From the IMG/VR virus record IMGVR_UViG_3300035138_000088: a stretch of 64,000 bases of DNA, one strand, 5' to 3'. The notes beneath the pieces were generated by a model, which searched no databases, was not told the DNA's origin, and saw only the letters and a list, made by a program, of their open reading frames with translations. The DNA comes from an uncultured virus (IMG/VR IMGVR_UViG_3300035138_000088). Taxonomy: Duplodnaviria; Heunggongvirae; Uroviricota; Caudoviricetes. How positions within the stretch are numbered: position 1 is the first letter of the stretch; the number at the start of each line of letters is the position of its first letter. Shown here piece after piece: positions 8,554 to 61,416 of the stretch. The position numbers and the translations under genes were made by a program.

Positions 8554-8587
8554 AAACATTTAAATTGAACGGTGCTATTACAGTAAC

Positions 8588-8835
8588 TGCTAACGCGGCA
8601 CAAAGAGCCGACGCGAAACAATGAAACATGCATTGGGGACATGGAGTAGTTAACGATGACGGAACTATCATTGAGGTCAACCATCTACCATAGGGATATG
8701 GTACGATTTGGCGCGACGTTAAGCACTTATAAATTTCCCCTACCCTGAGCTACACGGGCACAGCTCAGAAACCATACGCCAAAAAACACCAACACCAACA
8801 AGGGAATTAAGCGGGGCTCTCCGTCTTAATTCCCC
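8588..8835 (+). ncRNA. candidate structured ncRNA A
   Basis: Follows TATA (catttaaat ~8557); closing helix TGCTAACG/CGTTAAGCA (8588/8725); hairpins cggc/gccg, caatg/cattg, taccata/tatggta, ctgagct/agctcag, gggaattaagcgg/ccgtcttaattccc; no ORF. Confidence 0.55.
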
Positions 8836-8925
8836 TATCTCTCCTTTGAATTTTTTACAAAGTTTCCATTCAGGTAAGTTTATATACTGCCGTGCTATAC
8901 CTTTTACTATCAAAAAGGTGTGTAA

Positions 8926-10940: not shown

Positions 10941-11065
10941 GTTTTCCATATTCCTTATTTTTACCTAAAGCTTTAAATAGAAGCCTTTTTATATATAAAC
11001 CTTGCTCTATCGAAAATGTTTATATAAGACGATGATATATCTTTATCAACTAAAAAGGTGTGTAA

Positions 11066-15903: not shown

Positions 15904-16195
15904 TATTCTTCCCTTATTTTACATTTTTGACAATCTTCGACTGAAACCTCAACTAAAACACCATCCGTACCTAATGCCTCTTTCTGTTTTCTACAATAAT
16001 CAGAAACAGAAGTACAATCGCCTATTTGGAAGCGATGTTGACATGGTGGAAATGGGTCTGTCTTCTGAGATTCAATCATACTTTGACACTATATACTTTC
16101 TAATTAAGCTTCGTTATAAAGCTTTCTATGGGCTTCTTATACTTAAATCTTTTGACAAAACCCTAATATATCGCTATCACTACTAGATATTTAAT

Positions 16196-16345
16196 ATTGG
16201 TTTAGAGGGGCACGGTGGGGTTAGTCCCTAGCTATGAATCATTAGGTAGAGGGTTGACAGAGGATAGTTGAGTCAGTTGGTTTTTATTATTAGTCAGTTA
16301 AGTTAGTTACAGTAGTTACTGTTATTGTTGTTAGTAGTAAGGTTT
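16196..16345. repeat. G/T-rich low-complexity tract (AGTTA/GTTAG words) at second divergence point
   Basis: agtcagttaagttagttacagtagttactgttattgttgttag; resembles 2260-2360. Confidence 0.5.
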
Positions 16346-16381
16346 AAATAAGTTATTGGTCTACTAATCTTGGAATAAAAA

Positions 16382-16714
16382 ATGATTAAATTTACATACA
16401 GTAGATATACATGGAAAGCAACTGAAGGAGACCCATTTGTTTCAGCTACCATAAAGAAAAATATAACTCTTGAAAAAGCAATTTCTTTAATGGCTAACTA
16501 TCTTAGACGTATGCCTAATACTCTATCTTATGATAATATGAGTAAAAAAATTAGTTGTGAATTAGCTAGCTCTCGTCTCGGTGCATCAACAAGTAGTGAA
16601 GCCTTCATAGAATCAAATAAAGGGATTAATCCAGAAGAGGCAATTAAGATTATACAATTGATTACTGAAAAACTTCATTCTTTTCCTTCTTTTAAAAAAA
16701 ATAACAAAGTTTAA
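16382..16714 (+). CDS. hypothetical protein
   Basis: TATA at ~16342. Confidence 0.65.
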   Translation: MIKFTYSRYTWKATEGDPFVSATIKKNITLEKAISLMANYLRRMPNTLSYDNMSKKISCELASSRLGASTSSEAFIESNKGINPEEAIKIIQLITEKLHSFPSFKKNNKV

Positions 16715-16741
16715 TAGGTAGTTTAGACAGATAAGTTAGTA

Positions 16742-16976
16742 GATGATGTCGGGTAAGCTCTCCGATGTAACACTACAGTTGGGTGCGCTCGAATCGTAAT
16801 GTCGGGCTACAGTCTAACAAGGTTACACGCGACCTAGAGGCATCATCGAACATCAACCAGACATGTATAGGTTGGCTGAACACAAGCTCTGTGTCATGGC
16901 AGAGTACAATAACGCACATCTGGGAACACGGTGAGATGCCGTATATAGTTCCAGAGACCTCATGAAATCTGGTTGA
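16742..16976 (+). ncRNA. candidate structured ncRNA B (two tandem closed domains)
   Basis: Starts ~25 nt after TATA (aaagtttaata); GATGATGTC/GGCATCATC (16742/16847) enclosing tgtaac/gttaca; TCAACCAGA/TCTGGTTGA (16853/16976) enclosing ctctg/cagag and tctgg(g)aac/gttccaga. Confidence 0.6.
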
Positions 16977-16993
16977 AAGATATGGGTTAAAAA

Positions 16994-17308
16994 ATGTTCA
17001 GACAAATAGTTCAATGGTATTGTCATTGTGGAAAATTTACTAGAAATAGATTTCCAAACAATAAAGATGCTATGAGATTAAAAGGTGTGTCGAATGTTTG
17101 GAGTTTAAGCCATGACCCAATTTTAGGGAGAGTCGCTGACACAATTGAATGTGTTGGAATCAGAAAATGTAAATATTGCGGCGAAGAAAAAGCCATCATA
17201 GTTTACAATGACGGTGGATGGGGCTCTTGTCAATCATTCGCTTACAGTCTCGATTCAAAAGTTGGGAAAAGAGTTCTCGAAATATTAAAAGATTCCAATA
17301 ACCAATAA
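16994..17308 (+). CDS. zinc-binding hypothetical protein
   Basis: CHC...CKYC. Confidence 0.7.
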   Translation: MFRQIVQWYCHCGKFTRNRFPNNKDAMRLKGVSNVWSLSHDPILGRVADTIECVGIRKCKYCGEEKAIIVYNDGGWGSCQSFAYSLDSKVGKRVLEILKDSNNQ

Positions 17309-17339
17309 CTTTATATTGTTCTTTATAGTATCTATTTTT

Positions 17340-17503
17340 GGGCAAGATGATGGTGTAAAAGAAAGCACAGCCGTCATATAGGCAAGGTGGAAGCATGGGA
17401 ATGCATAACCATGTCGAAACCCTGTATTCCAAAGTACAAGGAATGCCAAACTCTCTATGGAGTACGGATGGGTAAATGGGCTCAATTCCCATTCTCTTAG
17501 CCC
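17340..17503 (+). ncRNA. tRNA-like structured RNA C with large insertion in the anticodon arm
   Basis: TATA at 17310; GGGC-AAGA/TCTT-A-GCCC termini; D-arm-like TGGTGT-AAAAGAAA-GCAC; T-arm ATGGG-CTCAATT-CCCAT; three hairpins in the insert; T-rich end. Confidence 0.6.
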
Positions 17504-17557
17504 TTTATTCTAACCGATAAGTTTATATCAATCCTTTTACTAATAGTAGCCCGTAGA

Positions 17558-17606
17558 GTTGGGGAAGTCTAAGACCGCTTGGGAAAGTAGCCTAAGTGTC
17601 CCCAAC
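17558..17606 (+). promoter_or_regulatory. structured 5' leader (three-way junction) of HD gene
   Basis: gttgggga/tccccaac 8 bp enclosing gtc/gac and cgcttggg/cctaagtg; between TATA (17521) and SD AGGTGA. Confidence 0.5.
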
Positions 17607-17618
17607 GAAAAGTAACAG

Positions 17619-18080
17619 GTGAATAAGATGGTAGACCTATTCAAACAATTCGAGCTTGAATATAAAGCGCGGAACCTAGTACGTGAACTTCTTGGAGAAG
17701 GATATTACTACGGTCACATCGTAAGGAGTATATGCGCCCTTAATGCTTTCTGTGAAAAACAGAAACAAATAAATGCTGTGAAACTTAGAACAATTTTCTA
17801 TCTCCATGACTTGGTTGAGGATACAAACGTAATTACTTACGAATACATCTGTGAAGAATTCACGAAGGAAATAGCCGACTTTGTTATGGAAGTAACTAAA
17901 GATGAAAACGGTGACTTTCCGCGTCTACATTCACTTGAAGGTCATATAATCAAGACTGTAGACCGAGCGGCAAACTTTACGTCTGACCACGTTAAACCAT
18001 CAAAGAAACAAGATTACATCAAACATATGAGTGGATGCTTCAGCACTACCCAGAAGGGTGTAAAAAATGCCAGCCGATAA
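17619..18080 (+). CDS. HD-domain hydrolase, SpoT/Mesh1 small alarmone hydrolase-like
   Basis: 'LHDLVEDT..T.E.I..EF..EIA.FV.EVTK' and 'IIKTVDR..N'. Confidence 0.7.
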   Translation: MNKMVDLFKQFELEYKARNLVRELLGEGYYYGHIVRSICALNAFCEKQKQINAVKLRTIFYLHDLVEDTNVITYEYICEEFTKEIADFVMEVTKDENGDFPRLHSLEGHIIKTVDRAANFTSDHVKPSKKQDYIKHMSGCFSTTQKGVKNASR

Positions 18081-18375
18081 AACTAAAAAAGAAAAAATAA
18101 AAGAGCCCAAGTTAGTTGATGTGAAACTGGAAGTTAGGACCTCAACAGAAATCACAAAAAATTACCAGTTCACAATAGTCAAAGTTGTCAGTGTAACGAC
18201 CACCCATAAACCTATGGTGAAAGTGGAAACTAAAGAGGTTGAAATAATGCGGCGTGGATTCGAAAAGATTGAACAAGCTTTACTGGTCCACAACGTCTTA
18301 TCTGACTTCATAGCTCATTTAAACCGAGCTCCTTTACATTCAATATTAAGGTTTGAGCCGCCAGAGGAAAAGTAG
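18067..18375 (+). CDS. hypothetical protein
   Basis: GGGTG SD; overlap. Confidence 0.7.
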   Translation: MPADKTKKEKIKEPKLVDVKLEVRTSTEITKNYQFTIVKVVSVTTTHKPMVKVETKEVEIMRRGFEKIEQALLVHNVLSDFIAHLNRAPLHSILRFEPPEEK

Positions 18376-18377
18376 AA

Positions 18378-18794
18378 ATGTCTGAAGATTATTTTAAATC
18401 TCTCATAGCGGCTTATGAAAAATGGGAAAAAACCCCAGAAGGTAAAAAGCGGAAAGAAGAAACAAATAAACGCAAAGTTTTCGAGATTCCTAAAGAAAAG
18501 TTACCTACTGGATGGACCCTTGAGGATGGTGGAGAAGAAGCTGGTTATTGTAATTATTGGAATGGAAGTTTTTCTCAATCGTCAGAAATAACAGTTGAGT
18601 TAGGGATAACAAAACCAATCCAATTTGGCGGTCAACAATATTACGTGGTTAAACTGAAAGAGTCAGATGAGGATGAAGAGGAAGATTATTTTGATGAAGG
18701 AAGAGAAATGGCTCGATTTGACGCGGAGAAAGATTGGAAGAAAGCCGCAGAGGAAGCTAATATTAAAGCTTTAGAAATCATGAGAAGATGTTAA
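18378..18794 (+). CDS. acidic hypothetical protein
   Basis: ORF track. Confidence 0.7.
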   Translation: MSEDYFKSLIAAYEKWEKTPEGKKRKEETNKRKVFEIPKEKLPTGWTLEDGGEEAGYCNYWNGSFSQSSEITVELGITKPIQFGGQQYYVVKLKESDEDEEEDYFDEGREMARFDAEKDWKKAAEEANIKALEIMRRC

Positions 18795-18938
18795 ATGCCG
18801 CCACGTAAGGGAAAACCTGATTGTTGGGGCGAATATGAAGAGTGGAATTCTGGTAAATATAAAAAGAAATGTGGTAATTGTTCTCATGTACTTGGTTGTG
18901 CATATAAAGCCCGAAAAGCTAAGGGTTGGTATAAATAG
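18795..18938 (+). CDS. 47-aa Cys4 microprotein (PDCWG...KCGNCSHVLGC)
   Basis: Hand-translated; abuts upstream stop. Confidence 0.6.
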   Translation: MPPRKGKPDCWGEYEEWNSGKYKKKCGNCSHVLGCAYKARKAKGWYK

Positions 18939-18991
18939 AAATCCTTAAATAGGATAGTGTATATACTGTACCCATTAAGGTGTGAACTAAA

Positions 18992-19528
18992 TTGAAGATA
19001 TTAGCCGCCAAAATCAGATGGAATGAAGGCTACTGTAATAATCCAGATTTAGAAATTCTTGTTGATAAAATTCCAGAACTTAAAGATTTGGATTATGATG
19101 TAACACAAGTTCGTTATGGAAACGAAAAATCAAATCTTTATCTCGCAATACAAGATGGTTACGCATCTTTCTTGTCATGGTCTGGAAAGAAAAACGATGG
19201 CGGTTACTGTGGACAGGAATGGCAAATCATAGTTAACGGTAAACCAGTCACAGTTAAGGGACCTTGGAGTTCTCGAAGTGGAGTCATGAATAAAGCCTTT
19301 AAAACTCAAGTCATGGAAGTTTCGATAACCGACGACTTACAAGCATATGAGCGGGGCTACACTTTTTGTGCTGGGGCTATGACAGTTGAGAAGGTCCTAA
19401 AAGAAGTATTACCTTTCTTCCATCATAGTATTACTCTACTCAGGATAGTTGATAAGGAAGGGGAAATCACTTATGTCCCAGTTAAACTTCATGAGCCAGA
19501 CATGAAAAAGATGACGGTGGTGAGTTAA
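18992..19528 (+). CDS. phage hypothetical protein ('KGPWSSR..VMN')
   Basis: Promoter plus AAGGTG SD; TTG start. Confidence 0.75.
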   Translation: MKILAAKIRWNEGYCNNPDLEILVDKIPELKDLDYDVTQVRYGNEKSNLYLAIQDGYASFLSWSGKKNDGGYCGQEWQIIVNGKPVTVKGPWSSRSGVMNKAFKTQVMEVSITDDLQAYERGYTFCAGAMTVEKVLKEVLPFFHHSITLLRIVDKEGEITYVPVKLHEPDMKKMTVVS

Positions 19529-20444: not shown

Positions 20445-20712
20445 GTCAGCAACTTTGAAGCAGTGCAAGTCTGCCCGAATTGATATGTAGGCTGTCTGGG
20501 CGGGGTACATGCTCCGCTCTCGAACAGCTATCCTATTACCTAACTAGGAAGCGGGTTGCCGTTCAGAGGGACTTAAACGTGTAAGGTAGGGTTCGATACA
20601 CCCAGCAGTAAATGCCCCAGAAAGGCTATAGCGAAGTATCATAAAAAGCATGTTTAGGTTAAGCCCGACGCGGCTGAATCCAACGAAGAACCGTTAAACC
20701 CGTCTTCCGCCA
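20445..20712 (+). ncRNA. candidate structured ncRNA D (~270 nt)
   Basis: After TATA aaagtttattaag; T-loop-like GCAG-TGCAAGT-CTGC; gggcgggg/ctccgctc inside gctgt/acagc; GGAAGCGGGTT/AACCCG-T-CTTCC; acttaaacgtgt/gcatgtttaggt; ends GCCA then pyrimidine tract. Confidence 0.65.
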
Positions 20713-32620: not shown

Positions 32621-32992
32621 TTATTCTACTAGAGCATAAATCGAATCATCGCCACACATAAGAGTGCGACCAGTAGCTACAACAAAAATCTTCTTTTCGT
32701 CGAGTAATTTGAAAAGATGCTTTGATAAAGCCGAGCTGGTCGTCATAAATCCTCTTTTCCAGAACTCGTGGTACATGCTTGACTTTCGCATTTCTCTTTT
32801 ATCAAGGATTTCCAGTATAGCCTTGCGAGTCTTTTCATAGATGCTTAAGCCTTTTCCCCAGTCCTTATATTTTATAGAAAAACGGTTAAGAATGTAAACT
32901 GTTTCTGGACTACATTTAGGACAATATTTAGCTAGAAGATTTTCATCGTCTGTTTCGAAACCGCAATTTGGATTGCTACACTGAAACTTCAA
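32621..32992 (-). CDS. Zn-ribbon + winged-helix putative transcription regulator
   Basis: CSNPNC...CPKC then 'ILEIL...ALSKHLFKL.DE.KI'. Confidence 0.6.
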   Translation of the reverse strand: MKFQCSNPNCGFETDDENLLAKYCPKCSPETVYILNRFSIKYKDWGKGLSIYEKTRKAILEILDKREMRKSSMYHEFWKRGFMTTSSALSKHLFKLLDEKKIFVVATGRTLMCGDDSIYALVE

Positions 32993-33540
32993 TATTGCAC
33001 ACCTTCGTCACATACGTCTTCATCTGGAGCTTTGATTGTAACGATTTCATTAACGAAGTCAGCTAATTCCATGAGTTCTTCAGTAGCATGTCGTCCAGTC
33101 ATGACGATATTCATGTCTTGTGGTATATTATTCAAGAATTGCTTTACTTCATCAACGGTAAGTAACTTACAATAAACGGCTAAGTTTATTTCATCGAGAA
33201 TCAATAGGTCTGTTTTGTTGTCAGTGATATACCGCCAAGTTTCTATTAAAGCTTCTAACGCTTTTTCTTTGTCCCTTCGATTAAGACTATTAAGCCCATG
33301 CCAGCCTTTTCTACCGTACTGTTTGACCGTAAGATATTCTTTTATTTTTTCCATGAATTGAGCTTGATATTCTCCAGTATTTGTGTTCCACTTCATTAAT
33401 TGGAGCATAAAGACCTTTTTACCATGACCTATAGCTCTCAATGCCAAACCTAATGCGTTGGTAGTCTTACCAGCACCATCTCCAGTATAAAGATATATTT
33501 TACCCATTATCTTGTCATCTCCAATCTGTTTATCTTCCAT
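32989..33540 (-). CDS. btuR: ATP:cob(I)alamin adenosyltransferase (CobA/BtuR/CobO family)
   Basis: 'IYLYTGDGAGKTTNALGLALRAIGHG', 'Q.MK', 'LLILDEIN', 'MTGRHA..EL...AD.V.EI'; start likely MGKIY 33507. Confidence 0.9.
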   Translation of the reverse strand: MEDKQIGDDKIMGKIYLYTGDGAGKTTNALGLALRAIGHGKKVFMLQLMKWNTNTGEYQAQFMEKIKEYLTVKQYGRKGWHGLNSLNRRDKEKALEALIETWRYITDNKTDLLILDEINLAVYCKLLTVDEVKQFLNNIPQDMNIVMTGRHATEELMELADFVNEIVTIKAPDEDVCDEGVQY

Positions 33541-34633: not shown

Positions 34634-36010
34634 TCACCTATCATTGAGTATTTCCCTCGCTCTCTTTAACAGGTAAGTTCTCCTGTTTAATCTCGGACGT
34701 TCGACTACTTCATCTAGTAGGGTCTTCTGGATTTTCCCTATAAGGGGACCCGCTTCTATTCCTAAGTCCATAATGTCATAGCCGTTAATCCTTAAGTCTT
34801 TAATCCTGAATGGTTGTTTAGCCACTCTTACTTTTAGGAGCTTCACTTCGAATTTCCTTGTATTTTCGAAGGCTGACCTTACAAATGGACTACCGCATGC
34901 GATTATGTCTGCATTTGCATGAACTACAATGTCAGAAACCCAATCTGGATTTTCAAGCTTAGATAGGTAACGCCGAGCTCCTCTCGAAGTCATAGCCTTA
35001 TTGAAATGTACATCCATATGATGTTTGACCATGAATAGTATATACTTTGCTTCCTCATTAGAGAACTTGAATCGTTCGACGATATTCGATGCTATCTCTA
35101 CGCCATCTAAATGATGCTTGGGGAAGTATGGTTTGGAATCGTTAGCTTTACGTTTGCCGCAATCATGAATTAACCCGACGAATCTAAGCAGAGGCTTTGA
35201 GGATGGTATATGTCGAACCGTTTCGAACATATGGTACATAACCGTGTGCTCATGAGGTTTAGGCTGAACTACATGTTTCAATCGCGTAACTTCAGGAAGG
35301 AGTTGTTCCATTAAGCCAGTACCTTCCAAATAAGACAGAGCCCAGTGGGGGTTTTCGATAGCGAAAATCTTGAATAGTTCGTCTTTGATTCGCTCCATAG
35401 GAATCTCTACGATTAGATGAGATAAAGCCTTAGCCGCGTCATAAGTTTCTTTGTTTATTATGAAACCAAGTTTGCATGCGAAGCGACACATTCGAATCAT
35501 CCTTAGAGGGTCCTCTCTGAATCTTTCCTCTGGAACGCCTACTGTTCGAATTATATGATTGTCCAAGTCCCTGTAGCCTCTAAAGGGGTCAATAAGTTTG
35601 ACACCATTCAAAGCCATAGCGTTAACCGTAAAGTCTCTTCGGCTTAGGTCCTTATCTAGGCTATCCTCAAAAGTCACTTCGTCTGGATGTCTCCTGTCCG
35701 AATACTTTCCTTCAGACCTATAAGTTGTAATCTCTATTTTCTCTGGTCCTCTTCCATCATCATCGTCTATTATAATCGTCATAGTTCCAAACTTTTCCCC
35801 AGTAGGAATAGCTGTAAAAGGTGTACTTCGGAATACTTCGGCTACCTGATTTGGTCTAGCATTTGTTGCTATGTCAACGTCGCTGATTGGACGGTTAAGA
35901 AGCGAATCTCTAACTGCACCACCGACTATATAGGCTTCATAGCCAGCCTTGGTAAGTATGTTGCACAAACCAAAAGCTTTAATGAGTTTCAACATTTTGT
36001 GGTTCTCCAT
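34634..36010 (-). CDS. cca: class II tRNA nucleotidyltransferase (CCA-adding-like) with HD domain
   Basis: 'VGGAVRD.LL....DVDIAT', 'EITTYR', 'DL.RRDFTVNAMA', 'EDPLRMIR..RF', 'ERI..EL', 'HDCGK'. Confidence 0.9.
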   Translation of the reverse strand: MENHKMLKLIKAFGLCNILTKAGYEAYIVGGAVRDSLLNRPISDVDIATNARPNQVAEVFRSTPFTAIPTGEKFGTMTIIIDDDDGRGPEKIEITTYRSEGKYSDRRHPDEVTFEDSLDKDLSRRDFTVNAMALNGVKLIDPFRGYRDLDNHIIRTVGVPEERFREDPLRMIRMCRFACKLGFIINKETYDAAKALSHLIVEIPMERIKDELFKIFAIENPHWALSYLEGTGLMEQLLPEVTRLKHVVQPKPHEHTVMYHMFETVRHIPSSKPLLRFVGLIHDCGKRKANDSKPYFPKHHLDGVEIASNIVERFKFSNEEAKYILFMVKHHMDVHFNKAMTSRGARRYLSKLENPDWVSDIVVHANADIIACGSPFVRSAFENTRKFEVKLLKVRVAKQPFRIKDLRINGYDIMDLGIEAGPLIGKIQKTLLDEVVERPRLNRRTYLLKRAREILNDR

Positions 36011-38306: not shown

Positions 38307-40064
38307 CTAATCGGGACAGGTTGGGCATTTACCTTCGGCTTTCTCTAATAGCTGGAACTTTCTGCTTCCATCCCTATAAACAGTTATTCCTTTACATCTA
38401 AGCTGGTAAGCCATAAAGTAGATATTTTCTATGTCGCCTATTTCTGCATTATTAGGGAGATTCACGGTTTTGCTTACTGCATTATCAGTGTGTTTCTGGA
38501 ATGCCGCTTGCATTTTAATGTGCCACTCGGGAGACACTTGAGATGAAGTAACGCAAAACTTTTGTACTTCACTGGGGAGCTTTATGCAACGCATAGAACC
38601 GCTTGATGCTATAGCGTCTTCTAATTGTTTGGTCCAGAGTCCCTTCAATTCTAAGCTTCTTTTTACTGAAGGATTTATTTCAATTAAGTCCTTCCCGAGA
38701 GTATCGCTGACGTTTCTCTTCTGTAATATTTCAAAGATTGGTTCGATGCTTTGTGAGCAGTTCGCAATCAAGCTGATTGTACCTGTAGGAGCTATAGTTG
38801 TTATAGTAGCGTTTCTTAAGTATGGCGGGTCAATAACTGAATTTTTAGTGCAATAAATACTCTTCTCGAAATTAGGGAAGTTTCCTTTTTGTTTTCCCAA
38901 CTCTTGGGACATCTGGAATCCTACATCGTGAATGTATTTCATTATAGCTTCAGCTAGGTCTACTGCTTCTTGACTATCATATCTTATTCCCATCTGCACA
39001 AGTAAGTCAGCCCAGCCCATAACTCCTAATCCAATCTTGCGATTCTCAAACGTTGCATGCTGGATTTCGGGTAGAGGAAGCTTGTTAACATCTATGACAT
39101 TATCTAGGAACCTCACCGCTAATCTCACTGTTTTCTTCAGTTTTTCCCAATCAATATGTGCGCCTTTCTTCGTATAGAATGCGGAAAGATTTATTGAGCC
39201 GAGATTGCAAGACTCGTAAGGCAATAATGGCATTTCACCACAAGGATTTGTTGATTCTAGTTGTCCTATTTTTGGTGTAGGGTTATCTTTATTTATTCTA
39301 TCAATAAATATGACTGCGGGTTCTCCGTTCTTCCAACTCATGAAGCATAAGAGATTCCAAATAACACGAGCTTTTAGTGTCTTTACAACTTTGTTAGTTC
39401 GGGGATTTATTAAGTCGAAATCATCGTCTCTCCTCACAGCACTCATAAATTTATCGGTTATTGCTACGGAAAGATTAAAGTTTTTGAATACTCCCTCTTT
39501 CTCTTTAGAAATTATGAAGTCTTGAATGTCTGGATGGTCCACACGGATGATACCCATGTTAGCTCCACGACGTTTACCGCCTTGTTTTATGACTTCCGTA
39601 GCCATGTCAAAGACGCGCATAAAAGATAATGGTCCACTGGCTATTCCACCAGTAGATTTCACAACGTCGCCTTTAGGTCTAATTCTGCTGAATGAGAATC
39701 CTGTTCCACCACCAGTCTTATGAATTTTTGCTGTATAATGAACTGCCTCAAAAATCTTGTCTATATCGTCGTCAACTGGGAGAACGAAACAAGCAGACAA
39801 TTGACCTATATCTGTTCCAGCATTCATTAGTGTAGGAGAATTCGGTAGGAATTCAAACTTAGTCATCATAGCGTAAAATTGTCGCTCTAACGCCCTGACA
39901 TCTTTTTTCTCCATTCCATACTTGAGTTCGACTTGCGCTATAGCCTTAGCGACGCGCCGAAACATTTTACTTGGGGTCTCAATAAGCTCCCTATTCTCGT
40001 CTTTAAGCAGATACCTTTGAGACAAAATATACTGTGCATTTTTACTAATCCTCATGTAAATCAA
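38307..40064 (-). CDS. nrdJ: class II (adenosylcobalamin-dependent) ribonucleotide reductase
   Basis: 'FLPNSPTLMNAG', 'QLSACFV', 'RRGANM', 'TNPCGE', 'CNLGS', 'APTGTIS', 'KGITVYRDGS', C-terminal CPTC; no beta subunit seen. Confidence 0.9.
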   Translation of the reverse strand: MIYMRISKNAQYILSQRYLLKDENRELIETPSKMFRRVAKAIAQVELKYGMEKKDVRALERQFYAMMTKFEFLPNSPTLMNAGTDIGQLSACFVLPVDDDIDKIFEAVHYTAKIHKTGGGTGFSFSRIRPKGDVVKSTGGIASGPLSFMRVFDMATEVIKQGGKRRGANMGIIRVDHPDIQDFIISKEKEGVFKNFNLSVAITDKFMSAVRRDDDFDLINPRTNKVVKTLKARVIWNLLCFMSWKNGEPAVIFIDRINKDNPTPKIGQLESTNPCGEMPLLPYESCNLGSINLSAFYTKKGAHIDWEKLKKTVRLAVRFLDNVIDVNKLPLPEIQHATFENRKIGLGVMGWADLLVQMGIRYDSQEAVDLAEAIMKYIHDVGFQMSQELGKQKGNFPNFEKSIYCTKNSVIDPPYLRNATITTIAPTGTISLIANCSQSIEPIFEILQKRNVSDTLGKDLIEINPSVKRSLELKGLWTKQLEDAIASSGSMRCIKLPSEVQKFCVTSSQVSPEWHIKMQAAFQKHTDNAVSKTVNLPNNAEIGDIENIYFMAYQLRCKGITVYRDGSRKFQLLEKAEGKCPTCPD

Positions 40065-44089: not shown

Positions 44090-44107
44090 TTTTTGTTTTC
44101 ACCTTTT

Positions 44108-44267
44108 AAATGAGATAAGGCGAGGGGTATATAGTCTCTTTACCAAGGGAGTTTTTTATAGGAACCCCATGTGCCTCTTGGCGCGTGATTAAGGCGGGAA
44201 GTATATCCAACATGATAGGTTTTTAATAGGAACTTCCTATGCCTCTATTCCGTTATCCATCTCATTT
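44108..44267 (-). ncRNA. 5' leader with two tandem covarying hairpin motifs (44117-44177 and 44191-44245)
   Basis: GAGGC..GGGGU/GGAAGU-UCCUAU.AAAAAC...AUAU-ACCCC/ACUUCC..GCCUU; enclosed by aaatgagat/atctcattt; TATA ~44295. Confidence 0.75.
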
Positions 44268-44359
44268 TATCTTTACATTTACTGTGCTTCCGTTCCTAAT
44301 AAACCTTTCTACATTTTTATACGAAAAGTTTATTTAGAAGCATGCATATCATTATGTAG

Positions 44360-44659
44360 TTGATAAATATGGTTCGCGTACTCTTTAAAGATGAAAAGAA
44401 AGTTGTTGTAGAGCTAACCAAAACAAAGGTTTGCATTGTAAATGAGAGAGGAATTACACTGCGCCTAAAAACAAAAGATGGCTGGGAAACCAAAAACTTT
44501 GACTTCAAAGATTTGCTATTAATGAACAACGTCATCAACCAGATAACCATACATAAATCAAAGCAACTACAAAGAGCTAGAAAGAAAATTAAGAAATTAA
44601 AAGAGGAAAAACTTGAAGAGCTCTACGTAGACCCTATGCCAGAAAGAGCTAACTGTTAA
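44360..44659 (+). CDS. basic hypothetical protein, isolated + strand gene
   Basis: Own TATA aaaagtttatttag ~44325. Confidence 0.65.
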   Translation: MINMVRVLFKDEKKVVVELTKTKVCIVNERGITLRLKTKDGWETKNFDFKDLLLMNNVINQITIHKSKQLQRARKKIKKLKEEKLEELYVDPMPERANC

Positions 44660-54603: not shown

Positions 54604-55695
54604 TTATTTTACTCCAATGTTATCCTTTATGATACCAAAGTCCAAACTAGCTCTAAGCCGCATGGTTGCAAGTTTGACCTCATATTCTTTTATGAGCTCA
54701 CTAGGATTATCGTCTATCTTTCTAATTAAGCTTTCTATGACGCTTGCCATTAGCGGGTCATTAACTTCAACGTTGTATTCTGAGAGTCCAAGCTTATCCA
54801 TAAGCATTGTATTCTTGTCAACAGTTGAAATTGAAATCGTTGGAATCTTCAAAGCTATTGGTATAACTTGTGAATGACCACGCATTCCTATAACCATCTT
54901 AGCGTAACTGTAATAATTTAATCCGTTTTTCAACATTTTATTCCAATCTAGAATTTGTACCATTTCAGGATTCCAATCAACGTAATTGAAGCACATACCA
55001 TCTGAAGGAACATGTTTTGCAAAAAAAACCTTTATTCCAATTCCAGTTAAAAAGTCAACTATATGCTTTATTTTAGCACAAAATTGTTCTGGTGGAACTT
55101 TGTTATTAGTGTATCTATGAATTATTCCGTCTCCAGATATGTTTAATATTGCATAGTCCCCTTTTATAAGCCTACTGGTTTCATCGCGTTTAACCCAATA
55201 AGCTGGGTCTGGACTTTCTCTTGGATTAAATCCAATTTCTTCAAGTTTTTCTTTTGTTCCATCAGCTCTAACACTGAAGAACCTTGAGTTTTTACGTATC
55301 TCAATTAAATTGGCTAATTGACACCGATAATCCATCTTAGCTAGGTTTGTAGAGCGGGGAGCATTATACCCTATTCCATATACAACATAAGGTACTTTCA
55401 GTTTTTTGTACCAAGATACTGGCTTAAACCACCATAAAGGAGAAGCATCCCCAAGCCAACCACCGCCGCCAATAAAGATTAAATCATAATCATCTGGATT
55501 GATTCTTTTTAATATTTCTTCAAAGGTCAAGTCTCTCTTTGGAGCATCATTATCGTAAGCCATAGTGTCTTTATCATGTATATTCTCTACTGGAATATGG
55601 AACATTTCAGCCATGATGTTTTTTGCACCCATAGCAAGCAATTTATCACCATAATTACATGTACCATATCCTAAATGGAAGTGAAATATCTTCAT
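54604..55695 (-). CDS. polysaccharide pyruvyl transferase family protein
   Basis: 'NYGD', 'IGGGG', 'GIG', 'SVR', 'PDPA', 'MRGHS'. Confidence 0.85.
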   Translation of the reverse strand: MKIFHFHLGYGTCNYGDKLLAMGAKNIMAEMFHIPVENIHDKDTMAYDNDAPKRDLTFEEILKRINPDDYDLIFIGGGGWLGDASPLWWFKPVSWYKKLKVPYVVYGIGYNAPRSTNLAKMDYRCQLANLIEIRKNSRFFSVRADGTKEKLEEIGFNPRESPDPAYWVKRDETSRLIKGDYAILNISGDGIIHRYTNNKVPPEQFCAKIKHIVDFLTGIGIKVFFAKHVPSDGMCFNYVDWNPEMVQILDWNKMLKNGLNYYSYAKMVIGMRGHSQVIPIALKIPTISISTVDKNTMLMDKLGLSEYNVEVNDPLMASVIESLIRKIDDNPSELIKEYEVKLATMRLRASLDFGIIKDNIGVK

Positions 55696-56138
55696 ATTTT
55701 TAATTTCAGCTCCAACTTCTTTCTGGGTCTATCGGTAAATTCGTTTGTTACTATAAATCCGAATCTCTCATATAAGGTTATCGCTTTCTCATTGTCCGCG
55801 TAAGTTGAAAGGTGAATTTCATTACAACCCATATTTTTGGCATATTTGATTAATTCGCACATTAACTTTGTTCCATATCCTCTGCCGACAACAGCCGATA
55901 CTATACCAAGTCTACATGTATGTTCTGTAAAGTTATAAAGATGACCAAACGCTACTATTGTATAGCCTTCTATAAGTGCAAGCTTAATTGAGCTAAAATC
56001 AGACAAGATTCCATTTACTATTTTGGTATCAAACTTTCTTCCGTAATAATGCCATAAATCTAAGGCTTTAGGAGTTAGCCATTGAAGGAAATCCAGTAAT
56101 AATCTTTCATCTTCTACCGTTAAAACTTTAATGTACAT
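55692..56138 (-). CDS. GNAT acetyltransferase
   Basis: 'GRGYGTKLM', 'N.KAI.LYERFGF'. Confidence 0.85.
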   Translation of the reverse strand: MYIKVLTVEDERLLLDFLQWLTPKALDLWHYYGRKFDTKIVNGILSDFSSIKLALIEGYTIVAFGHLYNFTEHTCRLGIVSAVVGRGYGTKLMCELIKYAKNMGCNEIHLSTYADNEKAITLYERFGFIVTNEFTDRPRKKLELKLKI

Positions 56139-56736
56139 CTTTGTTTTCTTCCTTTAAAGAAAATTCCCAGTATTTAAAGAACGTCGCCATAGCTGAAAAA
56201 TAACGATTAGAAGCTGAAGGTTTAATTGCCGTAATTAAAACTCCATCTCCCCAAAAAGCATAATTCGCTACCTTTTCGGTTACAAGCTTCTTGAGTTCGA
56301 CTATGTGGTAACCGTTTCTAAAGAATTTTTCTATACAAGCCTTAAATAGCGCAAGTGAATGAACCTCTAAAACATACTCATTTACCATAGAAAATATTTT
56401 ATCTGGAACAGTAAAGAGATGCCGTTCTCCACCGTCAAGGTCGCATTTTATCACGTCTGGCTTATCTTCTAAGATTATCTTAGAGATTTCGTTTGGAGTT
56501 TTTATGAATAGAAAAATTGGTTTCATATTCTTGAGCCATGCTGAGTTCTCAAGCAGTTTCTCGTAGCGTTCTTTGTTACCTTCTACAGCTATCACCTGAA
56601 TAGCTCCCTTCTCTAAGAAGAATTCAGCCGAACTTCCGTAATCTGCACCCAAATCTAGTACTTTCTTTCCAGCATAATCTATCAAACCATATTCCTTAGA
56701 GTAATCTTCGTCTCCAATAAACGGTTTTAATCTCAT
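56128..56736 (-). CDS. FkbM-like SAM-dependent methyltransferase
   Basis: 'VLDLGADYG', 'AVEG', 'IKCDLDGGE', 'EVH'. Confidence 0.8.
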   Translation of the reverse strand: MRLKPFIGDEDYSKEYGLIDYAGKKVLDLGADYGSSAEFFLEKGAIQVIAVEGNKERYEKLLENSAWLKNMKPIFLFIKTPNEISKIILEDKPDVIKCDLDGGERHLFTVPDKIFSMVNEYVLEVHSLALFKACIEKFFRNGYHIVELKKLVTEKVANYAFWGDGVLITAIKPSASNRYFSAMATFFKYWEFSLKEENKDVH

Positions 56737-57755
56737 AATAAAGCAACTCCATTGTCTCTTCTCACGGTCTTTTTGAATGTTTTCAGATTCTCATAACCTA
56801 TGTATGGAACATAATAATAGTCTGCATACCATAAGGCTATAAATTTCTTTGGTATTGTAGGATATGATTTAACACCATCAAGCCAGTTATCTATTAGGAT
56901 TTCTGGGCTATTCACTCCACCCATAGCGCGTACTATTTGAGCCCCAGTAAATCTTGCATTGAACTCAAAAATCTTGATTTCTCCACCAGAACGGAATCCT
57001 TGAACTGATAAGGGACCTACAACGCCAAGTTTGCCAACTATTTTAGCTATCATGAGTTTAAAATCCAAGTCATCTGTTTCTCCGCCATGAATTGTTTTGT
57101 AACTCATACCAAACTTTTTGACTGATTCGGCGCATGTGATTGAAAGTATTTCACCGTCCTTGGCTACTGTAGCCATCGCAGATAATTCTGTCCCATCGAG
57201 CTTTTCTTGAATTATATTTTCGAATCCATGCTCCTTGGAATATTGAATCATATTTTGGAGTTGGAACTGATTTGAACAATCAAAAACCATTCTGCTTCCA
57301 AACCCGCCACGCGGCTTAGTTATGACTGGGAAAGGATTAACATATTTTACATCGCTACCTTTCCATGTTTTCGGATAAGGAAACTTGTTTTCCCTGAGCC
57401 AGTTAGCCAATGCAAATTTGTCCCGTGCCAATTTTAAAACATTGTCTGGCGGCAAAAGGATTTCAGCATCAACCTCATTTTTTCGGAATGAAAGAATTTC
57501 GAGTGGAATATCATGAGCCACTATTATTAAGTCAATATCTTCTTTGGCTACTATTTTGTTTATATCGTCAATCCATTCGCTTACTTCTTTTCTAATCAAA
57601 TAGCCTCTATCTCCGACATATGCTCCTATAAGTAATGGGTCTATGTCAGACGTGATTATGTTATACTTTTGCTTTTTGATATTAGCTAGTCTTAAACATT
57701 TTATGGTTGATAAAGATGCTTGACCAGAACTTCCAACTATCAAAATATTTCTCAT
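56733..57755 (-). CDS. ATP-grasp ligase (CPSase-like, glycan-cluster type)
   Basis: 'DKF', 'P.PKT', 'FP...KPR.G.GS', 'QE.L.G.E', 'FEFNARF.G'. Confidence 0.85.
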   Translation of the reverse strand: MRNILIVGSSGQASLSTIKCLRLANIKKQKYNIITSDIDPLLIGAYVGDRGYLIRKEVSEWIDDINKIVAKEDIDLIIVAHDIPLEILSFRKNEVDAEILLPPDNVLKLARDKFALANWLRENKFPYPKTWKGSDVKYVNPFPVITKPRGGFGSRMVFDCSNQFQLQNMIQYSKEHGFENIIQEKLDGTELSAMATVAKDGEILSITCAESVKKFGMSYKTIHGGETDDLDFKLMIAKIVGKLGVVGPLSVQGFRSGGEIKIFEFNARFTGAQIVRAMGGVNSPEILIDNWLDGVKSYPTIPKKFIALWYADYYYVPYIGYENLKTFKKTVRRDNGVALL

Positions 57756-57756
57756 T

Positions 57757-58989
57757 TTATCCTACCTCTACATATTCCCCATCATCAACTGGTTTTACAA
57801 TATGAGTTCCTTTAACATGTTTTAATTCAAACTTTTTGAGACAGTGTGAACAAGTTACCACATTACAAAATTCCTTTTCAAAATCAGATTTAAGTTCAGT
57901 TATTTTTCTTTTACTCATTTCAAATAAGAAATCGTCTACTGATGTGGAATGACTTTTTATACTATAAAGTTGAAAGAGTTGTAAAGTATTCTTTCGTCGT
58001 CTACCCTGTTTATTATATTGTCTTATAGCTTCCAAACAAGCTTCATGATAGGCTTCTCTGGATATTTCTGGAGACCAAAGCTTCAAAGCAGTTTTTCTAG
58101 CTTCTTTACCCATTTCTTTAGCTAAATCATGGTCTTCAAGTAAGTTGTTAACATAATTAATCATTTCTGTTGGATTGGTGCTTTTAAATCCATTAACGCC
58201 ATGCTCTATTATTCTATCCATCTCCCAGCTTGCATAAACAACTGGTGGCATACCACTCATCATTGCTTCTATTAATCCATCCGTTAAGATTGTTCCAGTA
58301 GCACATTCCAAGTAACATCTATTTAGCTTGTATGCTACAATCATCTCTTCGAATGTAGTAATAGGGGTTCCGAGCCTAAAATCCAATCCATATCTTTTTG
58401 AGTGCGTAAAAGGATGAATTTTATCCCAAATAAATCCGCCGCGTTCCATGTATCTTGCATCATTCTGATTAGGAATACCTATTCGTTCACATGTCCACAT
58501 AGCTTTCTTTACTTCTCCAGTCCAGCCATTATAGATTTCTGGGTCTTGACTCCACGCAATTTTCCCTTTCATTCCATAAAATTCTTTTTGACTTTCGGCT
58601 GAGTAAATACATGGATAATCTCCTATAAGTTTGCTACCATGTTTAGCTAACAGTTCTTTAACTACAGTGTTACATAAGTGGAATTTCCAAACTATAGGTA
58701 TGTCTTGAAGGTATTTTTCCCATACTTCAATTTGTCCAGCGTCTGGAATTAAAATAGCAACGTCGTAATCATCAACATCAATTTCCTTCATACTTTCCCC
58801 GAGCAATTTAACGTTAACTGGCTTTGGTTTTATACATCTTAACCATCTCCAATAGCCATTTGATATTGATAAATCACCTTTAGGTTCTCTTCCGATAATC
58901 CTATTCGTAACATAAAACGTATCATTTGGCATTGATGAAGCCAGTCCAAACATCCAACCGTAATGTGGAATACAAGTTAAAATTTTCAT
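57757..58989 (-). CDS. GT-B (family 4) glycosyltransferase
   Basis: 'LIEAMMSGMP.V', 'I.HG.NG', 'MG..AR'. Confidence 0.8.
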   Translation of the reverse strand: MKILTCIPHYGWMFGLASSMPNDTFYVTNRIIGREPKGDLSISNGYWRWLRCIKPKPVNVKLLGESMKEIDVDDYDVAILIPDAGQIEVWEKYLQDIPIVWKFHLCNTVVKELLAKHGSKLIGDYPCIYSAESQKEFYGMKGKIAWSQDPEIYNGWTGEVKKAMWTCERIGIPNQNDARYMERGGFIWDKIHPFTHSKRYGLDFRLGTPITTFEEMIVAYKLNRCYLECATGTILTDGLIEAMMSGMPPVVYASWEMDRIIEHGVNGFKSTNPTEMINYVNNLLEDHDLAKEMGKEARKTALKLWSPEISREAYHEACLEAIRQYNKQGRRRKNTLQLFQLYSIKSHSTSVDDFLFEMSKRKITELKSDFEKEFCNVVTCSHCLKKFELKHVKGTHIVKPVDDGEYVEVG

Positions 58990-60023
58990 TTTATTGACTC
59001 CACCATTTCTTTGAATTGTAAGCCAGATGTAATCCAATTAAACTTGTCCGCGTAAGCTCTAGCATTATTTTCTTGTTCTTTCCGCAACTTTTCATCGTTA
59101 ATATATTTACATAAAGTTTTCTTGAATTCTTTTCTATTTGTCATAACTATGGCTTTATGTTTTGCATATTCTGGGAAACATTCTAAATTTGAAGTTATAA
59201 CAGTTTTGCCGTGTCCAAGCATATAAGCCAATGATGATTCGCCGATTTTATGCCAATACGTGACCACTCCTAAATCAGCCGCCGACATCCATACGTCTGT
59301 TTCTTCATCGGAAATTAATGGACGAGAAAAGTGTACTCTGGAACTCATACCAAATGTGCTGGCATAATCCAACAAATATTGCTGGGACTCATGAGAGCAC
59401 GGCGTTCCACAAAACAAGGCTTCAGTTCCGTACATTCCAGAAATCCATTTCAACAAGTCGTCATGTCCTTTGGATTTACCATAATAGCCCCATGCTATAA
59501 CCGAATTTGGAAGTCTTTGACCTACAGTTTTTCTGCACTCGGCTTTGTTAAGTTCTACGCCTTGAGTACAAGGAAATCTCCATACTGTCATTTTATCATG
59601 ATATTTCTTTCCACTTTTGCCGAGTGCATTAATCCATTTTTGTCTGTAAAAATCCTGAGATAAAGTAACAAACTCAGAATTCTTTAATATTGTATGTTTT
59701 TGTTCTTCAGTTCTAGGTTCTTCGTTCCAGTTGACACAAAAAATGATTTTCTTTGTTGGGTCAGAAAACACGCTTTCTAGGTCTCTATGAAAAATATAGT
59801 CCCAATAAGATAGGATAATCTTGTTGCTTCGTGCCATCTCTAACCCAAGACGAATCTCATTCTCATTATATTTCTGTCTAATATCGTAAAGGTTGACGAA
59901 ATCAACGTCTAACCCCACAGCTTCTAATCCTTGAATGAAGTTTTTTGGTGGTGGATAGCCCTGAAGTAAACAACCATTCTCGTGGGGAATCCAGTAGCCC
60001 ATAACAGTTACGGTTTCACCCAT
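58986..60023 (-). CDS. GT-B (family 4) glycosyltransferase
   Basis: 'WGY....KG.D.L', 'MSAAD', 'GK.VITS'. Confidence 0.75.
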   Translation of the reverse strand: MGETVTVMGYWIPHENGCLLQGYPPPKNFIQGLEAVGLDVDFVNLYDIRQKYNENEIRLGLEMARSNKIILSYWDYIFHRDLESVFSDPTKKIIFCVNWNEEPRTEEQKHTILKNSEFVTLSQDFYRQKWINALGKSGKKYHDKMTVWRFPCTQGVELNKAECRKTVGQRLPNSVIAWGYYGKSKGHDDLLKWISGMYGTEALFCGTPCSHESQQYLLDYASTFGMSSRVHFSRPLISDEETDVWMSAADLGVVTYWHKIGESSLAYMLGHGKTVITSNLECFPEYAKHKAIVMTNRKEFKKTLCKYINDEKLRKEQENNARAYADKFNWITSGLQFKEMVESIK

Positions 60024-60481
60024 TCTCTGATGTCAACTCCGTTTATTCCATTAGCTCTCAATCGTTCAAGGACATATAGCCTATCTTCGACGAACATATC
60101 TATTCCTAAGCTTTTTGCTGTCTGAATCTTGAATTCAAGCTCTGATGTTTGAATTGTTTCCCTGAAACAAATATGTTTAAAGCCAATCTTTCTTAATAAA
60201 TGTTCCGCCTTTTTACTTTTAGTGGTTCTTCCAGAAATGATGACTGAATCTCGTGGAATCTTGTCTAAAACTTTCCCATTCAAATTAAATGGGAGCCTAG
60301 CTATAATAAACACTATAGCTATTTTTAGTGACCATAACCCAGCTTTACTAAATGGGTCATTAGGTCCTGTGTAACGCATAAAGATTTCAAACGGCTTTGG
60401 GAGCTTATTTAAAACGCCGTCAAAATCAAATGCAAGTTTTATTCTTCCCAACTCCACTTCTTTCCGTGCTCGTTGTACCAA
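60008..60481 (-). CDS. HAD-superfamily phosphatase-like protein
   Basis: 'FDFDGV', 'ISGR', K, 'FVED'. Confidence 0.75.
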   Translation of the reverse strand: MVQRARKEVELGRIKLAFDFDGVLNKLPKPFEIFMRYTGPNDPFSKAGLWSLKIAIVFIIARLPFNLNGKVLDKIPRDSVIISGRTTKSKKAEHLLRKIGFKHICFRETIQTSELEFKIQTAKSLGIDMFVEDRLYVLERLRANGINGVDIREWVKP

Positions 60482-61416
60482 TCAACAGTTCTTTTTAGTC
60501 CTTCCTCGAAAGAAACGAATTCTGTCCCGCCAGTGAGTTTATTGAATAGCGTATTATCGCATAATAATTCATCTACATCGAACGGTCTCAGTTTCTTTTT
60601 GTCTATTATGATTTCATAGTCGTTTTTACCCATAACCTTGGCTATTGTGTCAGCAATTTCTTTCACTGACCAATTTACTCCTCTACCAAAGTTTACGACA
60701 GTTCCTTCCAAGTTTGGTGTTTCCATAAGTTTAATGTGACCCTGTGTTGCGTCGTTAACGAAAGTAAAATCTCGTTTCGCGTAGATGTTGCCTAGACTTA
60801 AAGTGTTTCCTCTGCTGAATTGCGTGATTATCTCTGGGATAATATAAGGCTGGGCTTCTCTTGGTCCAAAACAATTGAATTGTCTTAGAATTATCACTGG
60901 AATGTTTCGTTCTTTCCAGAGGATGAAACAAGCTCTATCGCCAGCGAACTTGGCTAACGCATAAATCGAGTGTGGTGTAGTTGGATGGGATTCGCTCATT
61001 GGATTAACTCTTGCAGTACCATAGACTTCGGAAGTAGAATAATATATTATCCTTTTAACTCTAGCTTTTTGGCACGACTTGAGTACGTGTATTGTTCCAA
61101 GCGTGTTTGTTTCAAACATTATCTCGGGATTCTGGAATCCTTTTGGTATGAAAGGTTCAGCCGCTAGATGGAAACAATAGTCAATTTTGTCACGTTTCAA
61201 TATTTCATCTAGAAGCTCATGGTTCTTTATGTTACCAACGACAAGATTGGCTTTCGTTCCGTCTAGATGAAAACGTTTTCCAGCGCAAAGGTTATCTAAT
61301 ACTGTAACTTCACAATTTATCTTCTCTAATTGGCGAACTAAGGATGAACCTATGAATCCAGCACCGCCAGTCACTAGAACATTCGAACCTTCTACTTTAT
61401 ATGTTTGGTTTTTCAT
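60439..61416 (-). CDS. NAD-dependent nucleotide-sugar epimerase/dehydratase
   Basis: 'TGGAGFIGS', 'HLAA', 'STSEVYG', YxxxK, 'RDFTFV.D'. Confidence 0.92.
   Translation of the reverse strand: MKNQTYKVEGSNVLVTGGAGFIGSSLVRQLEKINCEVTVLDNLCAGKRFHLDGTKANLVVGNIKNHELLDEILKRDKIDYCFHLAAEPFIPKGFQNPEIMFETNTLGTIHVLKSCQKARVKRIIYYSTSEVYGTARVNPMSESHPTTPHSIYALAKFAGDRACFILWKERNIPVIILRQFNCFGPREAQPYIIPEIITQFSRGNTLSLGNIYAKRDFTFVNDATQGHIKLMETPNLEGTVVNFGRGVNWSVKEIADTIAKVMGKNDYEIIIDKKKLRPFDVDELLCDNTLFNKLTGGTEFVSFEEGLKRTVDWYNEHGKKWSWEE

Follow-up and report, generated by a model that had tools for sequence, protein, structure and literature searches.

What does an uncultured tailed virus (IMG/VR record IMGVR_UViG_3300035138_000088) encode in the 310-nt gap between a 104-codon ORF (16994-17308) and the gene for a small HD-domain protein? 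The gap houses a candidate structured RNA of 164 nt (17340-17503, + strand), delineated from sequence, folding and G+C content, which a first-pass annotation had read as a tRNA mimic with three hairpins in place of the anticodon loop. The window that we analysed, a stretch of 64,000 nt, comes from a wetland-metagenome contig of ~96-101 kb. It shows signs of a tailed virus in the form of a portal-like protein, and it encodes a family B DNA polymerase, a ribonucleotide reductase, a block of sugar-modification genes, a corrinoid adenosyltransferase and an RPA-type single-strand-binding protein (SSB). The CCA-adding enzyme and the ligase that the annotation had invoked as possible partners of the RNA are indeed both encoded. 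Specifically, a class II CCA-adding enzyme with an HD domain (34634-36010, - strand; Pfam PolyA_pol, 6.5e-38) matched CCA-adding enzymes in the PDB at 7e-52 and the NCBIfam model for CCA tRNA nucleotidyltransferase with 268 bits, under the cut-off of 290. An RNA ligase (PF09414; 36465-37418, - strand) was recognised by Pfam (1.3e-11) and by the PHROG RNA ligase family (1.2e-8), with no sequence match in the PDB.

The source is a novel tailed virus, probably an archaeal one with a host among the Bathyarchaeia, as judged from its gene content and signals. An archaeal host is favoured because the nearest Atlas clusters of the CobA adenosyltransferase and of the RPA-like SSB belong to Archaea, mostly Bathyarchaeota, because an ATPase of the window matches the thermo_KaiC_2 model, and because neither sigma-70 promoters (46 found, 49.4 expected) nor intrinsic terminators (17 found, 14.1 expected) are in excess between positions 8000 and 27000. 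DegT was uninformative with respect to the host, since its 54 loci in genome contigs showed 22-33% identity and were spread over many phyla. The main text of a study on Bathyarchaeia viruses (PMC10848311) holds no mention of nucleotidyltransferase, RNA ligase, ribonucleotide reductase or intron.

The candidate RNA appears to have a promoter of its own. A predicted promoter region at 17299-17330 (+ strand) carries the TATA-like box TTTATATT (17310-17317) about 30 nt before G17340. When this region was aligned with two to three mRNA promoters, TTTATAT was invariant, and all six sites at which this motif occurs on the + strand of positions 1-26000 are intergenic and located upstream of units. Furthermore, the 32 nt of the promoter region constitute a direct repeat whose other copy, 75% identical, precedes the HD gene at 17511-17542, at a spacing of 212 nt; tandem TATA-like boxes are also clustered at 10972-11025. 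In the ordinary units of the virus, the TATA box precedes the ATG by 47-48 nt and the leader measures ~17 nt. With the same offset, transcription would start at ~17340, where the terminal helix described below has its first G. We consider the promoter of the RNA unit to be a well-supported prediction, and we infer that 17340-17503 is transcribed and where both transcript ends lie. The T-rich end TTTATT (17504-17509, + strand) may serve as a weak oligo-T terminator; both this end and the TATA box were present where the annotation had placed them. A run of five T residues (17335-17339, + strand) just 5' of the RNA start is possibly the stop signal of the upstream operon, in line with the oligo-T termination generally known from archaea.

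The unit downstream (17511-18080, + strand) consists of the twin promoter, a structured leader of ~80 nt that contains a hairpin at 17558-17606 and folds with a z-score of -2.29, and a gene for an HD-domain hydrolase of the RelA/SpoT type (ORF 17619/17629-18080). The best PDB match of the HD protein was a (p)ppApp hydrolase (E 0.0011), and the spoT_relA model recognised it at 3e-6 and its one relative at 7e-22. Read-through past the weak T-rich end into this operon is possible.

The two ends of the candidate RNA can pair with each other. The 5' strand of this terminal helix, GGGCAAGA (17340-17347, + strand), faces the 3' strand TCTTaGCCC (17495-17503, + strand; assigned from pair probabilities), such that GGGC (17340-17343) pairs with GCCC (17500-17503) and AAGA (17344-17347) with TCTT (17495-17498), leaving A17499 bulged. 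Inside this helix lies a D-arm-like hairpin, GTGT-AAAAGAAA-GCAC (17353-17368, + strand; stem 17353-56/17365-68), whose loop has a single G and lacks the G18 G19 with which a tRNA D-loop builds the elbow against the T-loop. It is followed by an anticodon-like stem, CCGTC/GATGG (17371-17375 with 17467-17471, + strand), for which the sequence offers CCGT/ACGG as an alternative pairing. Three hairpins can be drawn in the enclosed part of the RNA, namely gcatgg/ccatgt (17393-98/17409-14), gtattcc/ggaatgc (17424-30/17440-46) and actct/ggagt (17450-54/17459-63). At the 3' side, a T-arm-like hairpin, ATGGG-CTCAATT-CCCAT (17476-17492, + strand), is followed by two bases (17493-17494) and then by the 3' strand of the terminal helix, and five bases rather than two precede the D stem. 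The pair corresponding to 3-70 is G-C and not the alanine-identity pair G3-U70, and CCA is not encoded. The observation is confirmed in part: every helix named in the first-pass annotation was found in the sequence, as were the promoter and the T-rich end, while the cloverleaf built from these helices is not the preferred fold and the interior helices proved not to be robust, as detailed in the following.

Folding of the + strand gave a minimum free energy of -51.1 kcal/mol with a z-score of -2.90, and 1 of 200 shuffled sequences folded as well. The - strand reached a z-score of -1.27, with 26 of 200 shuffles as good. Among 3114 segments of 164 nt covering both strands of the window, the folding energy of the candidate ranked fifth as such and fifteenth after correction for G+C content, and its G+C content of 46.3%, compared with 38.1% overall, placed it in the top 2.7% of segments of this length. 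The ensemble is diffuse, the minimum-energy structure having a frequency of 1.6%. The terminal helix is its sole robust helix, with pair probabilities of 0.8-1.0 for the helix as a whole, 0.97-1.0 for the outer four base pairs and 0.5-0.84 for the inner four. For each of the three insert hairpins, and likewise for the D and T stems, the probability is ~0.3-0.5 and competitors are strong. For example, the D-arm-like hairpin competes with TGATGG(T)/(G)CCGTCA (17348-54/17370-76; probability ~0.65), GTATTCC prefers GGAGTAC (0.64) over GGAATGC (0.3), and the 3' strand of the T stem (probability ~0.4) has rival pairings such as 17392-17402 with 17485-17495. The anticodon-like stem CCGTC/GATGG is missing from the pairs with a probability above 0.15. 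The cloverleaf proposed initially has a free energy of -39.7 kcal/mol, and the best fold that retains acceptor, D, anticodon and T stems reaches -45.5 kcal/mol, at least 5.6 kcal/mol above the minimum, a weak test since real tRNAs may fail it as well. Constraining the fold to the T-arm alone costs 0.8 kcal/mol.

The terminal helix on its own is not rare, because 4.5% of positions (5678/127,400) have an 8-bp Watson-Crick partner 60-260 nt further downstream when up to one bulge is tolerated. The T-arm-like hairpin is a rarer feature. Hairpins with a 5-bp stem and an N-T-C-R-A-N-N loop number ten in 128 kb (both strands), two of which are G-C-closed, and the one at 17476-17492 is the only one of the ten that stands beside a terminal helix. 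It stops two bases before the 3' strand of that helix, a juxtaposition rare in the window, and the chance of such a placement is ~5 in 10,000 as a post hoc estimate from hairpin density. In the T-loop, T55, C56, A57 and A58 as well as the closing pair G53-C61 are canonical, and position 54 is a C. Moreover, the 17-mer of the T-arm is identical in 16 of its 17 bases to two sites of a jumbo-phage record, one inside a tRNA-Ala call at the expected place of the T-arm and the other inside a tmRNA call. The stack of acceptor and T-arm is non-canonical: instead of a 7-bp acceptor stacked on a 5-bp T stem, the candidate has a bulged helix of 8 bp, with two unpaired bases and the bulge between T stem and terminal helix, in addition to C54.

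Our results agree with the annotation on two points, namely that the element is no canonical tRNA and that a clear bulge-helix-bulge is missing. With default settings, ARAGORN called no tRNA gene and no tmRNA in the 64 kb, and the count remained zero when introns of up to 200 nt were allowed; the candidate is thus not scored as an ordinary intron-containing tRNA. Rfam yielded nothing at the gathering score, and positions 17250-17650 had no tRNA-type match at E-values up to 10. When the ARAGORN threshold was lowered to 85%, at which the program makes 27 calls in the window, one call was a tRNA-Tyr(ATA) spanning 17343-17502, limits that nearly coincide with the predicted start and the T-run. This model consists of 76 nt plus an 84-nt 'intron' at 37/38 (17382-17465, + strand), which corresponds to the insert with alternative hairpins that replaces the interior of the anticodon loop, and it uses the anticodon-like stem CCGTC/GATGG. 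Four of the 27 sub-threshold calls are intergenic and two have an upstream TATA motif, the second of these sitting over - strand ORFs. Calls in the gaps at 2017-2166 and 20491-20610 were dismissed on account of poor T-arms.

In silico excision likewise failed to produce a tRNA. None of 16,359 single deletions reached the ARAGORN default; one, the removal of 17376-17457, attained 95% of the threshold and six attained 92%. The same treatment of 120 random regions of the window yielded at least one match in 4 regions at 95% and in 13 at 92%. Double deletions passed the default in 4 of 615,600 cases, without a consistent pattern. A bulge-helix-bulge in the register of the ARAGORN model would have a central helix of one Watson-Crick pair, two G-U pairs and one mismatch. 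A strict motif, AUAG/CUAU (17378-81/17455-58), has the bulges GCA and GGA, an outer helix of 2 bp and an inner helix of 3 bp, and its register fits no 5-bp stem carrying a 7-nt loop. The background density of such motifs is 12.7 per kb per strand when inner and outer helices have at least 3 bp and 1.7 when they have at least 4 bp, and those in the candidate are no better than this background. The best-balanced motif (17470-73/17500-03), with 4 bp on each side, was rejected at a background of 1.7 per kb per strand and with 4 of its 12 pairs being G-U. The candidate RNA is neither a tRNA nor a spliceable pre-tRNA. Together, the results on folding, ARAGORN and hairpin rarity make the paired ends with the adjacent T-arm, and not a cloverleaf, the core that can be supported.

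No homologue carrying the element was found in any of the databases searched, and no close relative of the virus in phage records, IMG/VR or the metagenome set. A blastn search with 16000-19000 against phage records retrieved nothing. In IMG/VR, the exact T-arm 17-mer occurred at five loci, all in unrelated contexts; the HD protein had one distant locus, in an unrelated jumbo-phage record of 405 kb; the 104-aa ORF gave a 12-residue match only; and the 178-aa ORF, PolB, portal and CCA enzyme had no match. A set of 5.8 billion proteins contained, besides the HD protein itself, one relative with 42% identity. In JGI metagenomes the ATPase was found at two loci with 56% identity, at which it was the only one of 19 window ORFs in common, and these loci had no RNA match by nhmmer and no tRNAs by ARAGORN. 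Within the window there was no paralogue of the element (next-best match 18 nt, E 0.34), and antisense targets matched only at E-values of ~1 or more. Population variants were not detected, one identical contig being present in a single DNA run that is possibly the source sample. C/D-box and H/ACA RNAs, a k-turn, packaging RNA, a CRISPR-repeat mimic and an attachment-site remnant were considered by eye and dropped, as their defining motifs appeared to be absent. Literature on archaeal viruses, tRNA-like RNAs and CCA addition included no title on such an RNA among the matches listed.

Known systems resemble the candidate in part. Archaeal intron-containing pre-tRNAs share with it the paired GGG/CCC ends, a T-arm by the 3' strand and a long insert at 37/38, but the candidate lacks a bulge-helix-bulge above background, a single deletion that rescues it at default, and the GG of the D-loop, and its acceptor is bulged and spaced. 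Transfer RNA-like domains also occur in molecules that are not tRNAs, such as tmRNA, the Y RNAs, mascRNA and the tRNA-like structures of plant viruses. Like the candidate, the tmRNA domain, YrlA/Y RNAs, mascRNA and the plant-virus structures combine paired termini and a T-arm with a replaced anticodon arm, and an internal short ORF is present in the candidate as it is in tmRNA. In contrast to tmRNA, the candidate gave no ARAGORN or Rfam match and has G-C at 3-70, no encoded CCA and no SmpB among the Pfam matches of the window; in contrast to Y RNA/YrlA, it has no Rfam family and no Ro60 (TROVE) protein among 97 ORFs searched with Pfam. To our knowledge, the use of tmRNA is not known in archaea.

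Two viral systems are closer in setting. RNAs C and D of phage T4, which undergo tRNA-like processing, are like the candidate in being small stable RNAs that are virus-encoded, obscure in role and associated with the tRNA world. They sit in the tRNA gene cluster of a bacterial virus, whereas the candidate has no tRNA gene around it in 64 kb and its host is probably archaeal. Passages of PMC3014915 describe the two T4 RNAs as products of obscure role from the tRNA region of that phage. According to passages of PMC8651126, the archaeal tailed virus HGTV-1 encodes Rnl2 ligases, a CCA enzyme and 36 ordinary tRNA genes. The present virus has an HGTV-1-like toolkit in its RNA ligase of the Rnl2-family type and its CCA-adding enzyme; instead of 36 tRNA genes, the window holds none and just this odd element, and the CCA enzyme is of the bacterial class II type. 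The candidate RNA does not match any of these systems as a family.

Several explanations other than a dedicated small RNA have to be weighed. A working intron-containing archaeal tRNA, spliced by the host endonuclease at a relaxed bulge-helix-bulge and matured by ligation and CCA-tailing, would suit a host lineage that is probably within the TACK archaea, in which tRNA introns are common, and it could draw on the position of the insert at 37/38 with U33 and a purine at 37, and on the existence of the strict AUAG/CUAU motif. This explanation is barely credible in view of the failure of ARAGORN (with introns) and Rfam to recognise the element, the outcome of the single and double deletions, a strict motif that is out of register on a dense background, and the combination of a D-loop without GG, C54, A34 and an acceptor that is bulged and apart from the T stem. 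Decay of a former tRNA gene, with or without intron, is a somewhat easier proposition, though still a doubtful one. Such a remnant would have kept the promoter, the acceptor-like ends and the T-arm, would have lost the D-loop and anticodon features, and would be functionless. The tRNA-Tyr(ATA) call at the 85% threshold, a T-arm that is one base (position 54) off canonical and the deletion of 17376-17457 that reaches 95% all fit this scenario, but random regions do likewise at the rates given above, an intact duplicated promoter and a terminal helix paired over 8 bp are unexpected under neutral decay, and the 64 kb hold no tRNA gene as a possible source.

Transcripts of other kinds could also cover the locus. 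The element might be a structured leader or spacer, read from the first of the two tandem promoters into the HD-hydrolase operon, with a folding that is incidental or cis-regulatory. The two copies of the promoter are nearly the same in sequence and spaced by 212 nt, the TTTATT end signal is weak, the HD gene's own leader is long and structured (z -2.29), and the boxes at 10972-11025 provide another tandem TATA-like cluster. Typical leaders of the virus, however, measure ~17 nt, the terminal helix fits exactly into the space from the predicted start to the T-run, and the cis-regulatory families of Rfam gave no match, so that we regard a leader as rather unlikely. A small mRNA is harder still to reconcile with the data, and we would call it quite unlikely. 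It would have a 55-nt leader, an AAGGTG site (17384-17389, + strand) and, 5 nt further, an ATG at 17395 that opens 26 codons up to 17475, with the T-arm-like hairpin and the T-run as its 3' end. At the sequence level this micro-ORF has the ribosome-binding site spacing, start codon and open frame of a small-protein gene; its AAGGTG-5 nt-ATG layout is the same as in the genes at 8926 and 11066, and 8 of the 26 AAGGTG sites (both strands) are followed by an ORF with a length of 50 aa or above. The predicted peptide of 26 residues, which is below the 40-residue minimum of our protein searches, is however short, hydrophilic and without recognisable motif, a 37-codon GTG ORF overlaps it in another frame and shows that open frames are cheap here, the leader would be three times the usual length, and the G+C enrichment and strand-specific folding point to selection at the RNA level. 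Finally, an AT-poor spacer with fortuitous helices and no stable transcript would account for a terminal helix that is a 4.5% event, for the 14 other segments that fold equally well after G+C correction, for the diffuse ensemble with its 1.6% minimum-energy structure and for the empty homologue searches. Against such a chance resemblance, which we judge improbable, stands the coincidence of promoter, strand-specific fold, G+C enrichment, a helix at the predicted ends and the rare T-arm hairpin.

We therefore return to the explanation that we favour, to which we assign a probability of roughly 40%: a small structured RNA with a transcription unit of its own, which would act via a partial mimic of the acceptor/T-arm end, be read by tRNA-end factors and be co-expressed with the HD operon. 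Transcription would start ~30 nt past a TATA box of the type used by the virus and end at the T-rich run, giving a non-coding RNA of ~165 nt. Its 5' and 3' ends would pair as the bulged 8-bp helix with the T-arm hairpin two bases from the 3' strand, and these two elements may constitute the partial mimic, the remainder forming a variable body of several hairpins. The mimic might then serve as a ligand or substrate of RNase P or Z, or of the class II CCA-adding enzyme that the virus itself encodes, and the duplicated promoter would ensure that the RNA is expressed together with the neighbouring HD-hydrolase operon. This explanation is favoured because the promoter motif is common to mRNA units and duplicated 212 nt downstream; because the fold is specific to the + strand, ranks high in energy, is enriched in G+C and has a firm terminal helix; because the rare T-arm hairpin stands beside that helix and recurs with 16 of 17 bases in tRNA-Ala and tmRNA calls; because the sub-threshold ARAGORN call runs from the start to the T-run under a TATA box; and because there are signs of an archaeal host, the genome encodes tRNA-end enzymes and archaeal tailed viruses with such enzymes are known. 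It is weakened by the lack of a homologue, the ambiguous interior fold and a T-stem probability of ~0.4, by the 4.5% frequency of terminal helices and the marginal tRNA-likeness after splicing (one match at 95%, with 4/120 in the control), and by the non-canonical acceptor/T stack, the internal ribosome-binding motif with its ATG and the weak T-rich end.

Two kinds of role can be considered for the mimic. A decoy for anticodon nucleases, as suggested in the annotation, is unlikely from the architecture of the candidate, because ~85 nt replace the anticodon loop, which such nucleases read according to PMC3014915. A putative role at the acceptor/T-arm end, with RNase P, RNase Z or the CCA enzyme as partner, or else proteins that bind or attack tRNA 3' ends, is compatible with the predicted structure in that it fits the two robust features, the terminal helix and the T-arm hairpin beside it. 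A more elaborate and highly speculative scenario would have the acceptor/T-arm mimic made early along with the HD hydrolase, as part of a counter-defence set with the CCA enzyme and the ligase, in which the RNA would sequester or misdirect some host factor responsible for attacking or marking the 3' ends of tRNAs, leaving the genuine tRNAs to be mended by the enzymes. If this were true, it would be the first such RNA decoy in an archaeal virus.

As nothing more than a leader or the remnant of a decayed gene, the element would be unremarkable. If it is real, a virus from an archaeal lineage without a cultured member would encode a tRNA-like small RNA of its own, and this RNA would provide a concrete substrate for the viral enzymes. 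Together with its alarmone-hydrolase-like neighbour, the CCA enzyme and the ligase, the RNA would then suggest that archaea, too, are a setting for conflicts over tRNA ends, so far known mainly from bacteria and their phages.

The gene immediately downstream of the candidate structured small RNA at 17340-17503 (+) encodes, at 17619-18080 (+), a small HD hydrolase of the RelA/SpoT type with a length of 150-153 aa. The protein resembles the small alarmone hydrolases, and only one relative, with 42% identity, was found in a set of 5.8 billion proteins. The gene has its own promoter copy, and its leader (17548-17628, +) is long, at about 80 nt. Upstream of the ribosome-binding site, this leader contains a stable hairpin, GTTGGGGA...TCCCCAAC, at 17558-17606 (z of -2.29 for the fold energy relative to shuffled sequences), and it may be regulatory.

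Another stretch with a promoter, in which no open reading frame was evident by eye, was observed at 8559-8862 (+). Its promoter box, TTTAAAT, is located at 8559. The stretch comprises approximately 270 nt with a G+C content of 42% and a fold z of -2.54, and its 3′ end is formed by a 14-bp hairpin (around 8803-8836) that is followed by a run of six T residues. This stretch may be an additional small RNA gene. Strong folding was also found in the gap at 44090-44360 (+), where the windows at 44035 and 44076 ranked within the top 6 of the 3114 windows of 164 nt from both strands. Two similar motifs, ...ATAGGAAC...C[AC]TGTGCCTCT and ...ATAGGAACTTCCTATGCCTCT..., are present in this gap, which may contain regulatory sites or a further RNA. 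Furthermore, three tandem TATA-like boxes lie within 55 nt (10972-11025, +) upstream of the gene at 11066, and these are a second instance of stacked promoters in this virus.

Unusually for a tailed virus, a large block of sugar-modification genes occupies 54604-63718 (-). Its members include a pyruvyl transferase, an ATP-grasp protein, glycosyltransferases, a GDP-mannose-dehydratase-like epimerase, a DegT aminotransferase and Anp1-like proteins, accompanied by an FtsJ-like methyltransferase. In addition, a corrinoid adenosyltransferase (CobA/BtuR; 32989-33540, -) is encoded near the ribonucleotide reductase (38307-40064, -), and the virus may equip a B12-dependent reductase with the required form of its cofactor. 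The CCA-adding enzyme (34634-36010, -) belongs to the bacterial/eukaryotic class II and carries an HD domain. Since the viral host is probably archaeal and Archaea use class I enzymes, this suggests that the gene was acquired across domains.
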